From Armatimonadota bacterium (GTDB lineage Bacteria; Armatimonadota; UBA10988): DNA of 29,893 bases. The stretch's first letter is position 1; the number at the start of each line of letters is the position of its first letter. The DNA lies in assembly GCA_016235455.1 (NCBI GenBank), contig JACRKZ010000089.1:1-29893 (forward strand). Reading direction: 5' to 3'. The notes beneath the pieces were generated by a model, which did not search any database, was not told the origin of the DNA, and worked only from the letters and a program-made list of their open reading frames with translations. Shown here one piece after another: positions 149 to 8,441 of the stretch. Position numbers and translations under genes: made by a program.

Positions 149-321
149 GGCTGACGGCCCCAGCCCGAACCGGTGTTGGCGATCGGCCGAGAGCTGGTCC
201 AAGCGCGACTCGCACCCGTCAAAGCGCGGCCAATCGAGGTGGGGTCCGCCGCGCCACTGCCGATGAGTCGTGGCAGGAGTCCTCCGGCCTGTGCGGAATG
301 CCGGACCATCAGAGACTGTCC

Positions 322-1986
322 ATGCGCCACCTCCTCCTACTCCTGACCCTCCTGACCACCACCCTGGCCGGCGCCGCCGAGCGCCGCCTGCCGCTGGCCG
401 ACTATCTGGACCACATGAAGGGCGGCTGGGTCGGACAGATCGCCGGCGTCTGCTGGGGCGCGCCCACCGAGTTCCGGTTCGGCGACAAGATCATCCCCGA
501 GGAGGCCATGCCGAAATGGCAGCCGAAGATGATCAACGACGCCTTCGGCCAGGACGATCTGTATGTCGAGATGACCTTCCTGCGGACCATGGAGGAGCAT
601 GGGCTCGATTGCTCCATCCGCCAGGCGGGCATCGATTTCGCCAACAGCCGCTACCCGCTGTGGTGCGCCAACGATGCCGGCCGCAAGAACCTGCGCAGCG
701 GCATCGCCCCGCCCGACAGCAGCCATCCAAAGTTCAATCGCTGCCCAAACGACATCGACTACCAGATCGAGGCCGACTTCTCCGGGCTCATCGCGCCGGG
801 CCTGCCGAATGTGGCCGTGGCGCTGGGTGAGAAGTTCGGCCGGCTGATGAACTACGGCGACGGGCTCTATGCCGGCCAGTTCATCGGCGCGTGCTACGCC
901 GAGGCGTTCTTCGAGCCCGATGTGCGGCGCATCATCGAGGCCGGGCTGAAAGCCATTCCCGCCCAGAGCCAGTATGCCGAGATGGTGCGCGATATGCTCG
1001 CCTGGAGCCGCGATATCCCCGACTGGCAGGCCTGCTGGCAGCGCATCCAGGCCAAGTACCGCCAGGACCCCGCCTACCAGAAGGCCTCCAACGGTGGCAT
1101 CGACTGCAAGGTCAACGGCGCCTATGTGCTGCTGGGCCTGCTGTATGGCAAGGGCGATATCGACCAGACCATCGTCATCGCCTGCCGCGGCGGGCAGGAC
1201 AGCGACTGCAATCCGTCCAGCGCGGCCGGCATCCTGTGCGCCAGTCTGGGCTTTGCCAAGATGCCCGCGCGCTTCACACAGCAGCTGGACGAGAAGCCGA
1301 TCTTCAGCCACACCGCCTACAACGTGCCCAAGCTGCTGGCCGTCTGCGAGAAGCTGGCCCGGCAGGCGCTCGTGCGCGAAGGCGGGCGCGTCGAAAAGGC
1401 GGCCGACGGCACCGAGACGTTGGTCATCCCCGTCAAGCCCACCCAGCCCAGTCCGCTGGAGCTGAGCTGGTCGCCGGGGCCGATTGCCGACTCCAAGTTC
1501 ACCGACGCCGAGAAGGCCTTGATCACCGCGCCGAGCCCAGCGGCCGAGCTGAAGGCGGCGCTGAACAAGATCGCCCCCGGCTGGTCTATCGCTCAGGTCG
1601 GGCCGGACATGGAGCCCGGCTGGCGCGACGAGTGGCGCGGCCGGCAGGGCGTGCTGCTGACTCATCCGCTGGACCGCAACACGCCGTGCGTCATCAGCCG
1701 CAAGCTGGACGTGCCGGCCCAGGGCCGGACCACGCTTCGGCTGGCGGTCAGCCACTACCCCGAGGGCGACTGGGATCTGGTGGTGCGCGCGGACATGCGT
1801 GAGCTGCTGCGCCAGACCGTCGGGCCGAAGACCGCGCCCAACGGCTGGCTGGAAGTCAGCGTCGACCTGAGCGAGTATGCGGGCAAGACGGTGCTGCTGG
1901 AGCTGTACAACCAGGCCAACGGCTGGGCCTGGGAAGCGGGTTACTGGCAGAAGATCGCGGTTGAGACCGCGGCGGCGGGCCAGTGA
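322..1986 (+). CDS. Secreted ADP-ribosylglycohydrolase (ARH/DraG-fold) family protein with C-terminal beta-sandwich domain
   Basis: Signal peptide MRHLLLLLTLLTTTLAGA; GQIAGVCWGAPTEF, QDDLYVEM and GGQDSDCNPSSAAGI match ARH metal-binding segments; beta-rich C-terminal ~140 aa. ATG 322 preferred over 298. Confidence 0.8.
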   Translation: MRHLLLLLTLLTTTLAGAAERRLPLADYLDHMKGGWVGQIAGVCWGAPTEFRFGDKIIPEEAMPKWQPKMINDAFGQDDLYVEMTFLRTMEEHGLDCSIRQAGIDFANSRYPLWCANDAGRKNLRSGIAPPDSSHPKFNRCPNDIDYQIEADFSGLIAPGLPNVAVALGEKFGRLMNYGDGLYAGQFIGACYAEAFFEPDVRRIIEAGLKAIPAQSQYAEMVRDMLAWSRDIPDWQACWQRIQAKYRQDPAYQKASNGGIDCKVNGAYVLLGLLYGKGDIDQTIVIACRGGQDSDCNPSSAAGILCASLGFAKMPARFTQQLDEKPIFSHTAYNVPKLLAVCEKLARQALVREGGRVEKAADGTETLVIPVKPTQPSPLELSWSPGPIADSKFTDAEKALITAPSPAAELKAALNKIAPGWSIAQVGPDMEPGWRDEWRGRQGVLLTHPLDRNTPCVISRKLDVPAQGRTTLRLAVSHYPEGDWDLVVRADMRELLRQTVGPKTAPNGWLEVSVDLSEYAGKTVLLELYNQANGWAWEAGYWQKIAVETAAAGQ

Positions 1987-4019
1987 CCGGCTTCGGCCGC
2001 CGGCTGGTGCTCGTTCTACTCGCCCTGACCGCCACCGCGCCGGCGCGCGCCGAGGTCACGGTCGAGTCACTGCTGCGCGAGATGACCGACTACGCCGCCG
2101 TCGCGCGCTGGCCCGAGCCAGCCTACACCTGCCGGCAGGCCAGCAGCTACGACCGTGCCACGGTGGCGCCCGACAAGCCGGGCTGGTTTGCCAACAGTGA
2201 CCAGAACCAGTTCGTCCGCGTCGAAACCCACCAGGGCCGGACCGAGAAGGTCATGCTCGATGCCGATGGGCCGGGTGCGTTGGTGCGGTTCTGGCTGACC
2301 ACAGACCGCAACAAGCAGGGCCGGCTGCGCATCTACCTCGATGGCGCGGCCGAGCCGGCGCTGAGCTACCCGGCCTACGACCTGCTCAGTGGCGATCTGG
2401 GCGTCGGCGCGCCGCTGGTGCAGCCGCATCCCGGCTATCAGCCCGACGCCAACGGCGGCAACACATCCTACCTGCCCATTCCCTATGCCCGGCACTGCAA
2501 GGTGACCTGGGAAGAGGCCGGACAGAGCGCACGCTACTACCAGATCAACTACCGCACCTATGCGCCCGGTACGGTAGTGCGGACCTTCACGCGGGCCGAC
2601 CTGGACGCCGCCAGGCCCGCGGTCGCGCGCGCCGGTCGCGCGCTCGCGATGCCGCCCGACCAGCCTGCCGGCCGCGCCGTGAGCCAGACCACCGCGCTGG
2701 CCGCCGGCGGCACGCAGTCGCTTGATCTGCCTGCCGGCCCGGCTGCGGTCAGCCGCCTGGAGCTGCGGGCGCCGGCCGACGAGCGCGCCCTGCGGTCGCT
2801 TATCCTGCGCATGGACTGCGACGGCGAGCGCACCATCTGGTGCCCGGTGAGCGACTTCTTCGGCAGCGGCGTCGGCCTCAACGCGGTCGCGAGCTGGTAT
2901 CGCACGGTCGGCGCCGATGGGACCATGGTCTGTCGCTGGGTGATGCCTTACGAGCGCACCGCCCGGCTGTCGCTGCTCAACCTGGCGCCGGCGCCGATCA
3001 GCGCCAGCCTGGGTGTGACGGTCAGCCCGTGGGAGTGGGACGCGCGGTCCATGCACTTCCGCGCCGTCTGGCACTACGAATCGGGCCTGAAGACGCCGCC
3101 CGAGCGCGACTGGAACTACGTGACCATCGCCGGTCAGGGCGTCTATGTGGGCGACACGCTGGCCCTGTTCAACCCGCTGCCCACCTGGTATGGCGAAGGT
3201 GACGAGAAGATCTGGGTCGACGACGACACCTTCCCTTCGCACCTGGGCACGGGCACCGAGGACTACTACAGCTTCTCGTATGCGCCCAAGCCGGTGCACC
3301 AGACGCCGTTCACGGGCGAGCCGCGACTTGATCAGCCGATGACCCAGGGGCACAACACGCTGATCCGCAGCCGCAACCTCGACGGCATCCCCTTCGCGCG
3401 CCGCCTGAAGTTCGATATCGAGCTCATCGCCTGGCGCCCCATGGCGCTGACCTACGCCGCAACGACCTACTGGTATGCCCGGCCGGGCGCCACCTGCAAC
3501 GTCGAGCCCCAGCCGGCGGAGGCCGCCCTGCCCGTGCCCACGCTGGCCGACGCGGTCGCCGCGTCGAAGCCGCGTCCACGGCCCGGCGCCGTCGACTGCG
3601 AGACGATGACGGTGCTGGGCCGGTCGGGCGACTTCTTCCTCGGCGAACAGGACATGGCGCCGTTTGGCGCGGAACGCTGGGGCGCCGGCGCGCACCTGCT
3701 GGCCAAGACCACCGCTGTGGGTGACTGGTTCGAGGTGCAGTGGCCGGCGGCTGGCGCGGAGGCGCGCCGACTGGTGCTCCATGCCACCCAAGCGCCCGAC
3801 TACGCCATGCTGCGCTTTGCCGTCAATGGCCAGCGCGTCGAGCCGCTGTTCGACGGGTATGCGGACGGCGTGCAGCCGGCGCCGCCGTTCGAGCTCGGCG
3901 TGTTCGCCCCGCATGACGGCAAGTTCACGCTGCGGGTCGAGGTGGCCGGCGCCAATGCAGCGTCGAAGGGCGCGCGCTACTACCTGGGGCTGGACGACAT
4001 CGTGGCTGAGGCCCGCTGA
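1983..4019 (+). CDS. Secreted DUF2961 / GH172-family glycoside hydrolase with extra C-terminal beta-sandwich
   Basis: Signal peptide ending APARA; QASSYDR, DADGPGALVRFW, PVSDFFG, WYGEGDEKIWVD and GTGTEDYY motifs; GTGA start/stop overlap with the upstream gene. Confidence 0.85.
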   Translation: MTGFGRRLVLVLLALTATAPARAEVTVESLLREMTDYAAVARWPEPAYTCRQASSYDRATVAPDKPGWFANSDQNQFVRVETHQGRTEKVMLDADGPGALVRFWLTTDRNKQGRLRIYLDGAAEPALSYPAYDLLSGDLGVGAPLVQPHPGYQPDANGGNTSYLPIPYARHCKVTWEEAGQSARYYQINYRTYAPGTVVRTFTRADLDAARPAVARAGRALAMPPDQPAGRAVSQTTALAAGGTQSLDLPAGPAAVSRLELRAPADERALRSLILRMDCDGERTIWCPVSDFFGSGVGLNAVASWYRTVGADGTMVCRWVMPYERTARLSLLNLAPAPISASLGVTVSPWEWDARSMHFRAVWHYESGLKTPPERDWNYVTIAGQGVYVGDTLALFNPLPTWYGEGDEKIWVDDDTFPSHLGTGTEDYYSFSYAPKPVHQTPFTGEPRLDQPMTQGHNTLIRSRNLDGIPFARRLKFDIELIAWRPMALTYAATTYWYARPGATCNVEPQPAEAALPVPTLADAVAASKPRPRPGAVDCETMTVLGRSGDFFLGEQDMAPFGAERWGAGAHLLAKTTAVGDWFEVQWPAAGAEARRLVLHATQAPDYAMLRFAVNGQRVEPLFDGYADGVQPAPPFELGVFAPHDGKFTLRVEVAGANAASKGARYYLGLDDIVAEAR

Positions 4020-4057: not shown

Positions 4058-5077
4058 CTATCGACCCGCCAGCCGCTCGGCCAGGCGATCGGCGAGGCGA
4101 TCGTAGAAGACACAGTCGTAGGCGCCCATGCGCGACCAGTTGTCGGCGCCGAACTGCCGCTTGAATCGCGAGATACCGGCGAACAGGTGGTCGGGCCGGC
4201 CGAAGGGATCGTAGCCGTAGAGGTCGTACTCGCGGCAGCCGGCGGCGCGGGCGTCGCGTAGCGCGGTCCATTGCAGCAGGTGGTTGGGCATCAGGCCGCG
4301 GTCAGCGGCCAGCGAGCCGCCGTACAGGTACGTCGCGCGTCGCCCGAAGGTCACCACCAGGATGGCGGCCAGGTCGCGGTCCTGGGCGCGGGCGAAGTAG
4401 AGGCAGGCGCGGTCGCGCGGGAACAGCGTGGCGCCGAGGTTGAGGAAGAAGCCGTACGGCTCGCCAAAGAAGCCCTGCCGGCCGGCCGTGTCATCGAAGA
4501 TGGTGTGGAAGCGCCGCATATCAGCCAGGTCGGTCGAGCGGACGATTGTCACGCCGCGGCGCTGGGCCAAGCGCAGATTGTAGCGGAACTTGGGGTGCAT
4601 GGCGGCCAGCAGCGTGTCGTCGTCGCGGGTCAGGTCGATCATCACGGTATGCTCGGGCGTCAGGTCGACCGGTGCGCGTGACCAGCCGCGCAGCAGCGAC
4701 GGCGCCGGTGCGGGCAGGTGCGGCTCGATGCGCAGGCCCAGGCCACCGCGCGTGGACACATGGTCGCGCACCACCGCCAGCAGGCTGCGCAGGCCCGCGC
4801 GGGCGCGTTCGGTGTCGTACCAGGGCAGCACGGGCCCTTCGGGGCAGACGACGAACCCTTCGCCCTCTTCCGCCGGCCAACTGAGGAGCAGCGCGCCGCC
4901 CCACAGGCCGCCGTCGTCGTCGAACAGCCCGTAGCGATGGGTGTCGAAGCCCTCGGCGCGTTTGAAGGCGGCCCAGGCGCTCGATTGCATGAACCCGGAC
5001 TCATAGGCCGCGCCGGCGAAGGCGTCCCATGGCTCGTCCCACTCGGGTCCCAGCGGCACGGCCGGCGGCACGGTCAC
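4058..5077 (-). CDS. FemABX-family (FemX-like, double GNAT fold) aminoacyl/peptidyl transferase
   Basis: FMQSSAWAAFK, PEGPVL, TVMIDLT-DDDTLLAAMHPKFRYNLRLAQRRGV, ATYLYGGS, PNHLLQWTAL, YDLYG, GISRFKRQFG. GTG at 5077 overlaps the upstream TGA (GTGA). Confidence 0.85.
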   Translation of the reverse strand: MTVPPAVPLGPEWDEPWDAFAGAAYESGFMQSSAWAAFKRAEGFDTHRYGLFDDDGGLWGGALLLSWPAEEGEGFVVCPEGPVLPWYDTERARAGLRSLLAVVRDHVSTRGGLGLRIEPHLPAPAPSLLRGWSRAPVDLTPEHTVMIDLTRDDDTLLAAMHPKFRYNLRLAQRRGVTIVRSTDLADMRRFHTIFDDTAGRQGFFGEPYGFFLNLGATLFPRDRACLYFARAQDRDLAAILVVTFGRRATYLYGGSLAADRGLMPNHLLQWTALRDARAAGCREYDLYGYDPFGRPDHLFAGISRFKRQFGADNWSRMGAYDCVFYDRLADRLAERLAGR

Positions 5078-7380
5078 TTCTCGGCCGCTCCGAACCGCGG
5101 CATCGCCGGGCGCAGGTGGCCCAGGTCGGTCTGCATGCGCTGCGCCTCGCGGGCCAGGTTGTCGCGGTCCGACTGGGTCTGGGTGATGTCGCGCTCCGTG
5201 CGGCTGATGGCGTCCTGCGCGGTGATGGAGTCGGTACCGTAGTCCACGTAGTAGCTGGGCCCATTGGCCCCGCTGAGCCGCTGGTACTCGGTCAGATCCG
5301 TCTTGAGCGTGGCCAGGTCCTTGTCGAGGGTGGACAGATCCGTCCACGTCGCCGCGAGATCGGCGGTCATGTCCTTCTCGAGCTTGGTCATGATGCTGCG
5401 TAGCGCCGCAGCCAGTTCCGGCGGGCAGGCCTGCGAGGAGTCGCCGCGGTCCAAGTGCCGGCCATCGGTGGTCAGCCATGAGCGGTCGGGCTGGCGCAGA
5501 GAAACCTTGCCGTCGGGCGACAGGTAGCCGCCGACGAACAGCTCCACGCTGGTCGGGTCGGGCGCGCCCAACGACTCGCTCGACGCGGGCTTGCCCAGAC
5601 GTTGCACCGACTTGTCCAAGCGTTGGCCAGCGTCGGCCAGGTTGGCCGCCTCCAACCGGTCGGCATTGACCGTTGGCAGGAACCGGGCCCAGCCCACCCA
5701 GCCCAGCCAGTCGCGACGCAACTCCAGTTCCTTGGTCACGGCGCCACGCTGTCGCTGCACCTCGTCGCCCAGCCGCTTGAACAGGTCGGGATCGGCATAG
5801 AGCGCGGTCAAGGGCGTGCCGCTCTTGGTGCTCAGCAGCGATACCTGGCCCTGCGAGGCGACGAGGTAGGCGTCGTCGGCCAGCGTGACCACGACATCGC
5901 CGTTGTCCATGACGAGCACGTCGCTGGCCGCGGCGATGACCGCGTTCTGCTCGGCTTGAGCAGGTGCCGGTCGCGGCCCGCGGTAGCCGTGCCCCAGATA
6001 GATGTGCACGGTGTCCGGGTCATAGAGGAAGCGCCGCGCGCCGGTGGTGCGGCCTTCGATGTCGGTCACATGACCGCGCCCGTAGCCCGCGCCGAAGCCG
6101 CGGCCGGTGACGTGGGCGCTGGCCGTCGATGATCCGCCGCCGATGCTGGTGCTATGCGTGCTGCTGGCATGGCCAAACGAGCCGTGCGCGCCGAAACTGC
6201 CCTTGGCGAACACGTTGTCCGGCGAGAGCAGGTTGGCCATGGTCACCACGAGGTACAGGATGACCAGCACGCGCTGGCACCACAGGCCGAGTCGTTCCAG
6301 CCCTTCGGCGCGGCCGCGCAGGAATTCGCGCAGGCGCACCAACTCGGCTACCAGCTCGGCGGGCAGCCGCGCGGCGCGCTCCAGCAACGCCTGCACCAGC
6401 CGGTCCAGATCGAGCCGCCGCACCGTGCCGACCACGTCGGCGGCCAGCGTCTCCACCATCTCGCGGGTGTGGTAGGGGTGCAGGATACTCAGCGCCGAGA
6501 GCAGTCCGTCGAGCCGGTACGGCTCGTCCTCGCCGTCCGGCGATGCGGGCGGCCGGGTCTCGCGCGGATTGAGGATGAGCGGCAGCAGGCAGGGCTCGGC
6601 CAGCGTGTTGGTTGGCACGAGCGCTTCCACATGCCGCTCACTGCGCGCAAAGCGCGACAAGGCGTGCAGCGCCGAGAAGTCGGCCTGACGGGTGCTGACC
6701 GGGCAGGTCAGGTCGGCCAGTACGCGGCGGCGCAGCGGCCGGCGCGCGGCCAGGAAGAAGCTCCACACGCCGTAGCCATGCGCCCAGAAGCTGGGCATCG
6801 GCACGCGATAGGGCAGGCTGAACAGGCCTGCGGCGCGCATCGTGCGGCGCAGGCACCAGAACGCTTCGGGCGTGCGCTGGGGTGACAGGCCGTTGATCGC
6901 CGCGACGCCGCCCGGCGCCAGCACGCGCTTCATGCGGGCGTAGCCCTCGCGTGTGTGCAGCCGGCACTCGTCGGTGCGGCGCGGCACCGTCAGGTCGACC
7001 AGCAGCACATCGCACGGGTCGGCCTGCTCGAGGTAGTCCCAGGCATCGCCGCAGACGACGGTCACGCGTGGGTCGGCGAAGGCGTTGTGGTTCAGTTCGG
7101 CCAGGCGCCCGCGGGCCAGGTCGACGACCTCATGGCTGTAGTCGACCAGCGTCACCCGCGCCACACCGGGGAAGCGCAGGCACTCGCGTAGCGCCAGGCC
7201 ATCGCCGCCACCGAGGATGGTCACGGTCAGCGCGCCGGCCTGAGCCGGCTCGGCCAGGCACAGCGCCGGCAGCGCCAGGCACTCGTGGTAGTAGGCTTCG
7301 TCATGCGTGTCGAACTGCAGGTCGCCGTCCATGTACAGCGCCAGCGAGCCGTCCGCGCGCTCTTCCAGGTGCAGACCCAT
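5074..7380 (-). CDS. speE: Spermidine-synthase-like aminopropyltransferase fused to a helical linker, TM helix, Gly/His/Ser-rich segment and coiled-coil C-terminal region
   Basis: LYMDGDLQF..DEAYYHE, ILGGGDGLALRE, VTLVD, AFADPRV, GDAW, VLLVD motifs in the first ~270 aa; AAGGAG RBS; 768 aa versus ~290 for standard SpeE. Symbol applies to the N-terminal domain only. Confidence 0.8.
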   Translation of the reverse strand: MGLHLEERADGSLALYMDGDLQFDTHDEAYYHECLALPALCLAEPAQAGALTVTILGGGDGLALRECLRFPGVARVTLVDYSHEVVDLARGRLAELNHNAFADPRVTVVCGDAWDYLEQADPCDVLLVDLTVPRRTDECRLHTREGYARMKRVLAPGGVAAINGLSPQRTPEAFWCLRRTMRAAGLFSLPYRVPMPSFWAHGYGVWSFFLAARRPLRRRVLADLTCPVSTRQADFSALHALSRFARSERHVEALVPTNTLAEPCLLPLILNPRETRPPASPDGEDEPYRLDGLLSALSILHPYHTREMVETLAADVVGTVRRLDLDRLVQALLERAARLPAELVAELVRLREFLRGRAEGLERLGLWCQRVLVILYLVVTMANLLSPDNVFAKGSFGAHGSFGHASSTHSTSIGGGSSTASAHVTGRGFGAGYGRGHVTDIEGRTTGARRFLYDPDTVHIYLGHGYRGPRPAPAQAEQNAVIAAASDVLVMDNGDVVVTLADDAYLVASQGQVSLLSTKSGTPLTALYADPDLFKRLGDEVQRQRGAVTKELELRRDWLGWVGWARFLPTVNADRLEAANLADAGQRLDKSVQRLGKPASSESLGAPDPTSVELFVGGYLSPDGKVSLRQPDRSWLTTDGRHLDRGDSSQACPPELAAALRSIMTKLEKDMTADLAATWTDLSTLDKDLATLKTDLTEYQRLSGANGPSYYVDYGTDSITAQDAISRTERDITQTQSDRDNLAREAQRMQTDLGHLRPAMPRFGAAEK

Positions 7381-7384
7381 GGTG

Positions 7385-7903
7385 CTACTCCTTGACCGCC
7401 AGGCGGCTCACGCCCGCCGCGCACAAACCGCCCACCAGCCCGGCCGCCACGGCCAGCACGCCCGCCACCACGGGGATGGTCAGCAGGGCCGAGCTCGTTC
7501 CCGAGCCCATGCGGGCGCGCACCATGGTCATGGACACCAGGGCATAGCCGCCCATGGCCCAGCCCACGCCACCCGCGGCGCGGCGCAGGCGCTCGCCGAA
7601 GTCGGATCGCGCCTCGGCCACCAGCCCGGCCGCCACACCGGCCACCGCGGGCACCGCCAGCAGCGCCAACGCCGCCCACAGCCCCTGGCCCCAGACGCGC
7701 GGGTTGCGCGTCGCGAGCACCAGATAGCCGAGGCAGGCCACGGCCAGCGCCACTCGCCGCTCGGCTCGCTCACCAGACCGCGCAGCCTCGAGTCGGCTGG
7801 TATGCCGGTGCGACAGGTGCACATGCTCGTTGGGCGCCGCGTGGCTCGCGTGCGCGATCGGCGCCGGCTCCTCGGAGCCGTGTTCACGGTCGTCAATCGG
7901 CAT
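7385..7903 (-). CDS. Small integral membrane protein (about 4 TM helices) with His-rich N-terminal tail, unknown function
   Basis: GGAG RBS before ATG 7903; hydrophobic stretches VALAVACLGYLVL, LWAALALLAVPAVAGVAAGLV, GVGWAMGGYALVSM, ALLTIPVVAGVLAVAAGLVGGLC; overlaps speD by 11 nt and ends 4 nt before speE. Confidence 0.75.
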   Translation of the reverse strand: MPIDDREHGSEEPAPIAHASHAAPNEHVHLSHRHTSRLEAARSGERAERRVALAVACLGYLVLATRNPRVWGQGLWAALALLAVPAVAGVAAGLVAEARSDFGERLRRAAGGVGWAMGGYALVSMTMVRARMGSGTSSALLTIPVVAGVLAVAAGLVGGLCAAGVSRLAVKE

Positions 7904-8276
7904 GGGTCGTCTCCGCGTCGCGCACACCACGCCGTTGCGTGACCACCTCCACCCGCTCGGGCTCGAAGGCGGCGCGCAACACGGGCAGCACGGCGTGCGG
8001 GTCACAGGGCCCGCAGGTGAACACGTCCACGGCGCAGTAGCCGTGCTCGGGCCAGGTGTGCAGGCTCAGGTGCGAGGTGGCCAGCAGGGCGATGGCGGTG
8101 ACACCGCCGCCAGGCGAGAAATGATGCAGTCGGTAATCGATCAATTGCGCCCCCGTCGCCGTCACGGCGTCCAGCAGCGCGGCGCGCACGGCCTCGACAT
8201 CATCGAGCCGCGTGGCGCCCCACAGGTCAATCAGCAGATGCACGCCGCTGGGCAGGGCGACGTGGTCCGAATCCAT
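7893..8276 (-). CDS. speD: S-adenosylmethionine decarboxylase proenzyme (short class 1B type, pyruvoyl-dependent)
   Basis: GVHLLIDLWG, HHFSPGGGVTAIALLATSHLSLHTWPEHGYCAVDVFTCG, C-terminal RG motif; 127 aa. Confidence 0.88.
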   Translation of the reverse strand: MDSDHVALPSGVHLLIDLWGATRLDDVEAVRAALLDAVTATGAQLIDYRLHHFSPGGGVTAIALLATSHLSLHTWPEHGYCAVDVFTCGPCDPHAVLPVLRAAFEPERVEVVTQRRGVRDAETTHAD

Positions 8277-8321
8277 AGGTGTAGACCCCTAACCGGCCGA
8301 ATCCGTACGCGCGATAGGACC

Positions 8322-8351
8322 GTTATACGGCATGACGATCCGCTCGGTCAA
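8322..8351 (-). promoter_or_regulatory. Sigma70-like promoter of the speD operon
   Basis: Minus strand TTGACC (8351-8346), 18 nt spacer, TATAAC (8327-8322), 45 nt upstream of the speD ATG. Confidence 0.55.
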
Positions 8352-8441
8352 GGACAACGCGGCTCTCTGGCCGATCGTTCCCATCCGCAACGGCTCCCGA
8401 TGCGTTGCTCTCAGGTACGGCTACGAAGCGGTGGGAGTCGG

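Follow-up and report, generated by a model that had tools for sequence, protein, structure and literature searches.

A candidate membrane-associated aminopropyltransferase–FemAB cassette in Armatimonadota and other bacteria

Why would an enzyme of the spermidine synthase type carry a predicted membrane anchor and be encoded beside a transferase of the FemAB family? This question is raised by four genes in a stretch of 29,893 nucleotides (nt) from an Armatimonadota bacterium (GenBank assembly GCA_016235455.1, contig JACRKZ010000089.1, positions 1 to 29,893; hereafter the window), which encode an S-adenosylmethionine decarboxylase (SpeD), a small protein with four transmembrane (TM) segments (the 4-TM protein), a large aminopropyltransferase (APT)-like fusion protein and a Fem transferase (Table 1). 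To our knowledge, polyamine synthesis is the only established use of decarboxylated S-adenosylmethionine (dcSAM), and Fem transferases are known mainly from peptidoglycan cross-bridges. Judging from the protein sequences, we lean towards the view that the operon is a two-enzyme amine-conjugating module at the cytoplasmic face of the inner membrane. Published clusters of SpeD with membrane-bound APTs already point to a second use of dcSAM; the new element of the present locus is that aminopropyl chemistry is tied, gene to gene, to a tRNA-dependent Fem transferase.

What we infer for this module, from its donor and acceptor chemistry through the sequence of reactions and the topology to the destination of the product, is as follows. 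SpeD would make dcSAM, and the N-terminal domain of the APT-like protein, held by one TM helix, would move the aminopropyl group from dcSAM to an amine, the acceptor being a mono-amine or other non-diamine at the face of the inner membrane. The FemX-like enzyme, with aminoacyl-tRNA as its donor, would then link an amino acid through an amide to the new primary amine. Alternatively, the Fem enzyme may acylate the acceptor before aminopropylation; we favour the APT acting first, since the aminopropyl amine would mimic the usual Fem target, the side chain of lysine. The product may be handled, exported or sensed by the 4-TM protein and by the extracytoplasmic domain of the APT-like protein, and the presence of both suggests passage across the membrane, either of the product or of a signal about it. 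A functional parallel is offered by the MprF-type aminoacyl-phosphatidylglycerol synthases, which use aminoacyl-tRNA at the cytoplasmic membrane face and cationise an envelope component. The use of aminoacyl-tRNA at this face and the presence of membrane domains that move the product outward would be shared, without any claim of homology, whereas MprF forms esters on a lipid and, unlike the cassette, has no link to dcSAM.

As the preliminary description of this DNA had it, the four genes are co-oriented, their open reading frames (ORFs) running head to tail on the minus strand from 8276 to 4058, and all three of the junctions that it gave (-11, +4 and -4 nt) were re-read from the sequence. The ATG of the 4-TM gene at 7903, with GGAG in front, overlaps the speD stop codon (7895-7893) by 11 nt; the TAG that ends this gene (7387-7385) is followed, after a gap of 4 nt, by the ATG of the APT gene at 7380, with AAGGAG upstream; and GTGA at 5077-5074 contains both the stop codon of the APT gene and the GTG start of fem, GGAG lying 10 nt upstream. 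All three of these purine-rich elements resemble Shine-Dalgarno sequences. A sigma70-like promoter had also been read in front of speD: the element at 8351-8322 does match the consensus at 10 of 12 positions, and it is missing from our consensus scan because the rule of that scan demands a -10 hexamer that ends in T. No Rfam element, riboswitches upstream of speD included, was found between 3800 and 9000. Eight DNA runs from two studies cover 4058-8400 wholly or partly; no RNA run is listed for it.

The APT-like and Fem genes stay together far beyond this genome. Using the last 499 residues of the fusion protein as query, we detected related sequences in 22 of the 401 Armatimonadota genomes sampled, including the host, one of them being a weak match of 73 residues, and 20 sibling loci were compared with the proteins of the window. 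The fem gene directly follows the fusion gene in 18 of the 20; of the two siblings without an adjacent fem, one has its contig end inside the fusion gene and the other has about 0.4 kb of sequence left after it. A scan of GTDB (one genome per species, with an alignment of 14 Fem sequences as query) returned 63 loci, the ORFs of which were scanned with profile HMMs built from the alignments of this analysis. In 39 of these loci, 21 in Armatimonadota and 18 outside, the gene immediately preceding fem is APT-like; going by record titles, the 18 fall to Thermomicrobiales (1), Obscuribacterales/Melainabacteria (11), Sericytochromatia (1), Cyanobacteria (4, of which two are identical in sequence), Planctomycetales (1) and Omnitrophota (1). 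In loci of these other phyla, too, the start and stop codons of the two genes overlap or lie close together. The expectation that fem would be linked to spe-type genes elsewhere thus withstood a direct check, in the form of pairing with a membrane APT, and since it recurs in Armatimonadota, in Cyanobacteria and non-photosynthetic bacteria related to them, in Chloroflexota-type bacteria, in Planctomycetota and in Omnitrophota, the pair is not a peculiarity of a single lineage. One apparent fusion of the two enzymes (P0102, 1170 amino acids (AA), with both PF01564 and PF02388) was not counted as a Rosetta-stone protein; it is probably a frameshifted gene call, because its junction is rich in Arg, as if read through out of frame, and leads into an ordinary Fem start.

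What kind of enzyme is the fusion protein? Its N-terminal domain is matched by PF01564 (residues 29-204, E 2.2e-21), by the sequences of Thermus, Pyrobaculum and plant enzymes in the PDB (7xif, 1uir and 3anx, about 2e-26) and, in a Foldseek comparison, by the structure 1uir (E 3e-15, TM-score 0.71; 0.70-0.76 for SpeE-type targets). NF002956, a model for membrane-fused APTs, was matched over its catalytic half only (positions 264-511 of 522), and the scores for this model (203 bits against a cut-off of 472) and for TIGR00417 (80 against 250) are far below the equivalog cut-offs. An AlphaFold model of the whole protein, made with 70 homologues (mean pLDDT 84.7), combines a confident SpeE-like domain with helices at 290-356 and 361-385, the second of which contains the single hydrophobic segment of the protein (364-382). 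The linker carries a conserved block, HPYHTR.MVETLA, and its profile also matches the partners in other phyla. As arginines are concentrated ahead of the TM helix and charges are few behind it, we place the catalytic domain in the cytoplasm and predict that the last domain lies outside. This outer domain is built of beta units and long helices, with pLDDT mostly >90 at 430-763; no Pfam family above threshold, PDB sequence relative or Atlas cluster was found for it, and a Foldseek search with the whole model gave only SpeE-type entries among the listed ranks, since the catalytic domain dominates such a search. Throughout the APT-like partners the same plan recurs, i.e. catalytic domain, linker, one hydrophobic helix at about 360-500 and a tail of 60-500 residues; the outer domain varies in length and is absent in some partners of other phyla.

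The active site argues for a SpeE-type reaction on a different acceptor. With the canonical SpeE enzymes (PDB 1uir, 3anx, 7xif, 6bq2, 1inl) the protein shares the fold, the GGGDG motif (G57-G58-G59-D60-G61), the Q...DE..YHE block and D129, which aligns with the first Asp of the DLTDP motif of Thermus SpeE; GGGDG, this block and D129 are invariant in all 70 aligned relatives. It differs from them by the extra linker, the TM helix, the outer domain of 340 residues and the loss of the second Asp of DxxDP, the motif reading D-L-T-V-P instead of the D-L-T-D-P of Thermus. Position 132 is a valine in 90% or more of the 79 family members aligned, and in all APT-like partners GGGDG and the first Asp are retained and the second is replaced by V, A, F, L, S or G, whereas APTs of the 7-TM type keep D-[FM]-P-D-P in 7 of 7 cases. 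In SpeE structures the Asp of GGGDG is held to exclude the carboxylate of SAM, while the first Asp of DxxDP is, as we take it, the catalytic base and the second presumably grips the far amine of a diamine. By these residues the family looks competent for dcSAM and not built for a putrescine-type acceptor, which the loss of the second Asp makes unlikely.

The Fem protein is matched by PF02388 in three stretches (3.1e-33, 115.7 bits against a cut-off of 24) and also by PF13480. Its closest solved relative is FemX of S. aureus, the lipid II:glycine glycyltransferase (PDB 6snr, 7.9e-17), followed by Weissella FemX (about 5e-7), which it resembles in size and in having no coiled-coil arm. The best NCBIfam models fall far under their cut-offs (PEP-CTERM FemAB, 47.8 against 260 bits; FemX alanyltransferase, 42 against 500). 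K39, R165, Y252 and F305-K306 are invariant in the Fem alignment; K39 and F305-K306 are found in 14 of 14 cassette Fems as well as in a housekeeping paralogue, and F305-K306 aligns with the FK of S. aureus FemX. From work on the Weissella enzyme we take the Lys of the C-terminal F-K motif and an N-terminal Lys to be catalytic. FemAB family membership and the F-K motif are thus shared with FemX, FemA, FemB and MurM (PDB 6snr, 1lrz, 1ne9, 3gkr, 4ii9), whereas the cassette enzymes form a separate clade and have neighbours of the polyamine type rather than wall genes. In a maximum likelihood tree of 59 sequences, from which six loci with Fem fragments of <250 residues were omitted, all 39 APT-linked Fems fall into one clade of 41 (SH-aLRT 90). 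The two remaining members are from a locus whose contig ends inside the last domain of the fusion (L077) and from a Chthonomonadaceae genome with its cassette genes on different contigs (L085). Outside the clade, and without an APT neighbour, are Fems of Comamonadaceae, Chloroflexota, Spirochaetota and the candidate phyla radiation. In sequence terms, therefore, the operon Fem belongs to a subfamily defined by its APT partner.

The acceptor may instead be a peptidoglycan precursor (UDP-MurNAc-peptide or lipid II), on which the pair would build an aminopropyl-containing side chain or cross-bridge; of the acceptors named in the preliminary description (lipid II, a lipid or a protein), lipid II comes first. 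The nearest solved relatives being wall enzymes would fit this, as would the membrane tether of the APT, which suits a lipid-linked substrate; moreover, some Negativicutes have polyamines covalently bound to their peptidoglycan. We nevertheless regard this as unlikely. The host (a genome of 6.5 Mb in 185 contigs, 93% complete) has a second Fem of 363 AA (contig C24, L064:2379-7592; PF02388, 1e-43), 32% identical to the operon Fem and placed outside the APT-linked clade, whose gene comes immediately behind those for an MraY-like GT4 protein, MurG and an APH-family kinase-like protein and which is probably a peptidoglycan side-chain enzyme. Its position beside wall genes and outside the clade would mean that the wall role of Fem is already covered in the host, and no mur, pbp or other wall gene recurs near the cassette in the 20 sibling and 63 GTDB loci.

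How does the cassette compare with known systems? Ravi et al. (2024, mSystems; PMC11237479) describe two types of operon, the first with DUF350 (YjfL), DUF4178, a lipoprotein and a spermidine-synthase-like domain fused to an N-terminal 7-TM region, and the second with a glutathionylspermidine-synthetase-like ATP-grasp ligase, DUF350, DUF2617, DUF4247, AdoMet decarboxylase (AdoMetDC) and polyamine oxidase; the linkage to AdoMetDC is credited there to Li et al. (2019, Biochem J), and the role proposed is to monitor either the concentration of polyamines or the aminopropylation of other substrates. Like these systems, the cassette has AdoMetDC or DUF2617 beside a membrane-bound Spermine_synth protein and small multi-TM proteins, and for both the aminopropylation of an unidentified substrate is proposed. 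The cassette differs in having a Fem enzyme where the published operons have the ATP-grasp ligase, in an APT with a C-terminal single TM helix and an extracytoplasmic domain instead of an N-terminal 7-TM region, in the loss of the second Asp, which 7-TM-type APTs keep, and in a 4-TM partner that is not detectably the DUF350 of the published operons. Armatimonadota carry the classical DUF350 form as well: five genomes (G011, G012, G019, G026 and G048) have single-repeat DUF350 genes no more than about 2-3 kb from speD, without DUF2617, and in a sixth (G031, L065), whose genome lacks SpeD, the order is DUF2617-DUF350-APT, the APT ORF being about 585 AA long. The parallel to DUF350/glutathionylspermidine-synthase-like neighbourhoods drawn in the preliminary description proved apt, DUF2617 being a component of the published operons (PMC11237479) and occupying the SpeD slot in 15 of 20 siblings, save that the membrane partner is not detectably DUF350. 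The suggestion that the system is undescribed stands in so far as no linkage of Fem to APT or SpeD was met in the literature searched, from which the supplements of PMC11237479, Li et al. (2019) and Iyer et al. (2009) lay apart; the term FemAB is absent from the main text of PMC11237479. By analogy, the cassette can be read as a Fem-type variant of the poorly understood SpeD/membrane-APT/DUF350/DUF2617/ATP-grasp system.

The 4-TM protein itself, with an N-terminal soluble helical region ahead of its hydrophobic segments, matches no Pfam or NCBIfam family. Its gene precedes the fusion gene in 18 of 20 sibling loci, and by sequence it is a family of its own that is kept upstream of the APT gene in Armatimonadota. 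The idea that it is the split-off membrane domain of 7-TM-type APTs was rejected at the sensitivity of the comparison (hhalign probability 0.3%).

The published pairing of a ligase related to glutathionylspermidine synthetase with SpeD, membrane APT and DUF2617 (PMC11237479) also invites a soluble version of the reaction, in which a free polyamine is made or lengthened by the APT and then aminoacylated by the Fem enzyme, the product being an aminoacyl-polyamine and thus a tRNA-dependent counterpart of glutathionylspermidine-type amides. GSP_synth (PF03738) has no match in the host genome at its 93% completeness, and Fem could fill the slot of the ligase. Fem-like enzymes, moreover, aminoacylate small amines in some natural-product pathways. 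However, none of the Fem-linked APTs retains the residue that would hold the distal amine of a diamine acceptor, and the membrane anchor, the conserved extracytoplasmic domain and the 4-TM partner would be superfluous, so that we consider a soluble product quite improbable.

Does the cassette depend on dcSAM? SpeD is matched by PF02675 (E 4.9e-34, 117.3 bits against a cut-off of 25) and by the equivalog model TIGR03330 (116.7 against 75.65 bits), and by its sequence it is a class 1b-type S-adenosylmethionine decarboxylase proenzyme. According to a study from 2023 (PMC10407285), Ser, His and Cys together with a Pro mark true AdoMetDC as distinct from SpeD-derived arginine and ornithine decarboxylases; all four are present here (T-S-H-L-S-L-H-T-W-P-E ... 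F-T-C-G), the diagnostic Pro being, in our placement, that of H-T-W-P-E. The operon SpeD is the sole AdoMet_dc match of the host genome, in which no stand-alone SpeE was found and Spermine_synth occurs in just one further protein, of 920 AA, where it is fused to an MFS transporter domain (G000, contig C168, L063:5600-8362). Among six genomes searched from the same family, SpeD occurs only in the two with the cassette, and inside the cassette in both; two cyanobacterial-group genomes with SpeD in the cassette (G415 and G416, both checked) have a second SpeD match on another contig. SpeD adjoins the cassette in the window, in L039/L075 and in L099-L102, L104, L106, L109 and L114. Its adjacency was counted in 10 loci from at least four phylum-level groups, and it directly follows Fem in 7 of the 18 non-Armatimonadota loci. 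From this distribution, with the sole AdoMet_dc gene lying in the cassette, and from the residues of a true AdoMetDC, it would follow that the cassette needs dcSAM. SpeD does not, however, hold as the conserved core member that it was first taken for, since a single one of the 20 sibling loci has it next to the cassette, in the one genome that shares its family with the window.

In most siblings another gene takes this place. The gene before the 4-TM gene encodes a protein of about 170 AA in 15 of 20 sibling loci, and 4 of 4 such proteins tested match DUF2617 (PF10936, 7e-9 to 7e-15); in the Thermomicrobiales locus, DUF2617 directly follows Fem. Among the 19 siblings with their upstream region assembled, those that, like the window, lack DUF2617 are the three with SpeD, which in two of them lies away from the cassette (G359, where it is beside a SpeE of canonical size, and G247); the remaining sibling (G373), on a contig that starts inside the fusion gene, is SpeD-less. 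Fifteen of 16 further cassette genomes have SpeD, the exception being a carrier of DUF2617 (G414). Taken over all cassette genomes, AdoMet_dc was matched in none of the 16 DUF2617-bearing Armatimonadota (L037-L056, L070-L092) and in 18 of 18 genomes without DUF2617; only the Thermomicrobiales genome (G401) has both. The classical DUF350 loci of Armatimonadota follow the same alternation. Across the 401 Armatimonadota genomes DUF2617 is found in 18 and AdoMet_dc in 146, and in the families that hold most of the DUF2617 cassettes SpeD is scarce to begin with (present in 1 of 32 and 2 of 20 genomes). When placed on the Fem tree, the alternation comes down to 2 independent pairs (p = 1) and thus has no statistical support. 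Among 14 control genomes, Corynebacterium glutamicum and Haloferax volcanii have Spermine_synth and DUF2617 without AdoMet_dc.

DUF2617 carries an invariant Ser-His, Glu, Cys and an H-T-Y-P-E block. That it is a diverged homologue of AdoMetDC was rejected: hhalign of 15 DUF2617 sequences against the SpeD of the window gave 1.7% probability, its AlphaFold model is all-beta (pLDDT 87.3) with no AdoMetDC-like fold, and no fold match in the PDB reached E <= 0.001 (best, 8.7e-3). Since GGGDG is invariant in the DUF2617-linked APTs, these should need dcSAM too. DUF2617 is the obvious candidate for its supply. One could speculate that the pair yields a kind of molecule not met before, an envelope or membrane component with an N-aminopropyl group capped by an amino acid from tRNA, and that DUF2617 is a non-homologous supplier of the aminopropyl donor, i.e. 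a new SAM decarboxylase or equivalent, which stands in wherever SpeD is absent. We think this fairly unlikely: the genome with both genes weighs against a replacement of SpeD by DUF2617, as does the statement in PMC11237479 that operons with DUF2617 can also encode AdoMetDC. Were it correct, it may explain how organisms without a recognisable AdoMetDC feed membrane APTs.

Several observations weigh against an amine-conjugating module as outlined above, the chemistry of which is assigned from family membership. Of the 20 sibling cassette genomes (those without SpeD being 77-96% complete), 17 have no match to PF02675, and no class 2 AdoMetDC (PF01536) was found in these 17, a weak result given that the control was silent; cassettes in such genomes would either receive dcSAM from an unrecognised source or use another donor. 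The loss of the second Asp could mean changed or lost activity, and the FemAB fold overlaps Acetyltransf_6, so that an acyl donor other than aminoacyl-tRNA may be used; no tRNA gene is present in the window. That the 4-TM protein is DUF350 was rejected at the sensitivity of the comparison (hhalign probability 0.7% against Armatimonadota DUF350), and DUF350 (PF03994) has no match in the host genome; without that link, it is DUF2617, SpeD and the APT that carry the analogy to the published systems. In the Chthonomonadaceae genome (G308, identical with G414), DUF2617 with the 4-TM gene (L040), the fusion gene (L067) and fem (L085) are found on three contigs, each piece with unrelated flanks, which represents either real dispersal or an assembly artefact. 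A predicted complex of APT residues 1-360 with Fem, at a score of 0.15 against a mark of 0.32, speaks neither for nor against physical contact.

The genomes without SpeD also bear on the possibility that the APT-like domain is no aminopropyltransferase at all, and is instead a methyltransferase, a SAM-dependent aminocarboxypropyl transferase or a non-catalytic binder that SpeD accompanies as an occasional passenger. Weak matches to Pfam methyltransferase families do occur alongside PF01564. We hold this to be very unlikely, given that GGGDG is invariant in the 70 aligned members and in the partners of other phyla, that the positions of the Q, of DE..YHE and of the catalytic Asp are kept, and that SpeD adjoins the cassette in 10 loci of four or more phylum-level groups. 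Ordinary polyamine synthesis, with SpeD and a divergent SpeE making spermidine or a related compound and Fem as an unrelated neighbour, is the least probable of all, even though the cell may depend on what are its only AdoMetDC and one of its two Spermine_synth proteins, as it is contradicted by the adjacency of APT and Fem across several phyla with overlapping or close start and stop codons, the separate clade of the cassette Fems, the presence of the cassette in genomes with a canonical speD-speE pair (e.g. G359) and the loss of the diamine-binding Asp.

The amine-conjugating module thus keeps our preference, and the interpretation given in the preliminary description holds as regards gene linkage and the analogy to DUF350 systems, with the reservation that SpeD is not a core member and the 4-TM protein is not detectably DUF350. 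Comprising two to four genes, the cassette is a compact and expressible system for finding what membrane-bound aminopropyltransferases modify.

Table 1. Coordinates of the operon and of the parts of the APT-like protein in the window
Feature	Position	Strand	Basis
Promoter-like TTGACC-N18-TATAAC, upstream of speD	8322-8351	-	read by eye
SpeD, 127 AA	7893-8276	-	PF02675, TIGR03330
4-TM protein, 172 AA	7385-7903	-	hydrophobic segments; no Pfam/NCBIfam family
APT-TM-extracytoplasmic-domain protein, 768 AA	5074-7380	-	PF01564
APT-like catalytic domain, residues 1-270	6571-7380	-	PF01564, PDB sequence and fold matches
Helical linker (residues 271-360) and single TM helix (361-385)	6226-6570	-	AlphaFold, hydrophobicity
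Gly/Ser-rich disordered stretch (about 386-425) and extracytoplasmic domain (426-768)	5077-6225	-	AlphaFold
FemAB-family transferase, 339 AA, compact, FemX-like	4058-5077	-	PF02388

The window has a G+C content of about 70%. On either side of the operon (298-4019 and from 8744 onwards) it encodes an ADP-ribosylglycohydrolase (PF03747), a DUF2961 protein of 678 AA whose start resembles a signal peptide, and a very large secreted protein matched weakly by DUF6250 and 3-keto-disaccharide hydrolase; these flanking genes are not kept beside the cassette in other genomes. The neighbours that do recur are DUF2617, SpeD, the 4-TM protein, a PhyH dioxygenase and an unnamed small family. The PhyH-family Fe(II)/2-oxoglutarate dioxygenase (PF05721, 1e-31; L044:10571-11368) adjoins the cassette, upstream or downstream, in 5 of 20 Armatimonadota loci, the others being L047, L049, L051 and L052. 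The unnamed family is encoded just 3' of fem in four non-Armatimonadota loci (L092:3514-3855, L095:9267-10621, L103:9993-11475 and L114:752-2226), either as a protein of about 120 AA or as the C-terminal domain of a multi-TM protein. Its members have no Pfam match and carry the motifs FGRIP ... LRDW.EN.NT.GL ... DWL.NWNA.GDPGPPGP, and they could represent a substrate or an adaptor.

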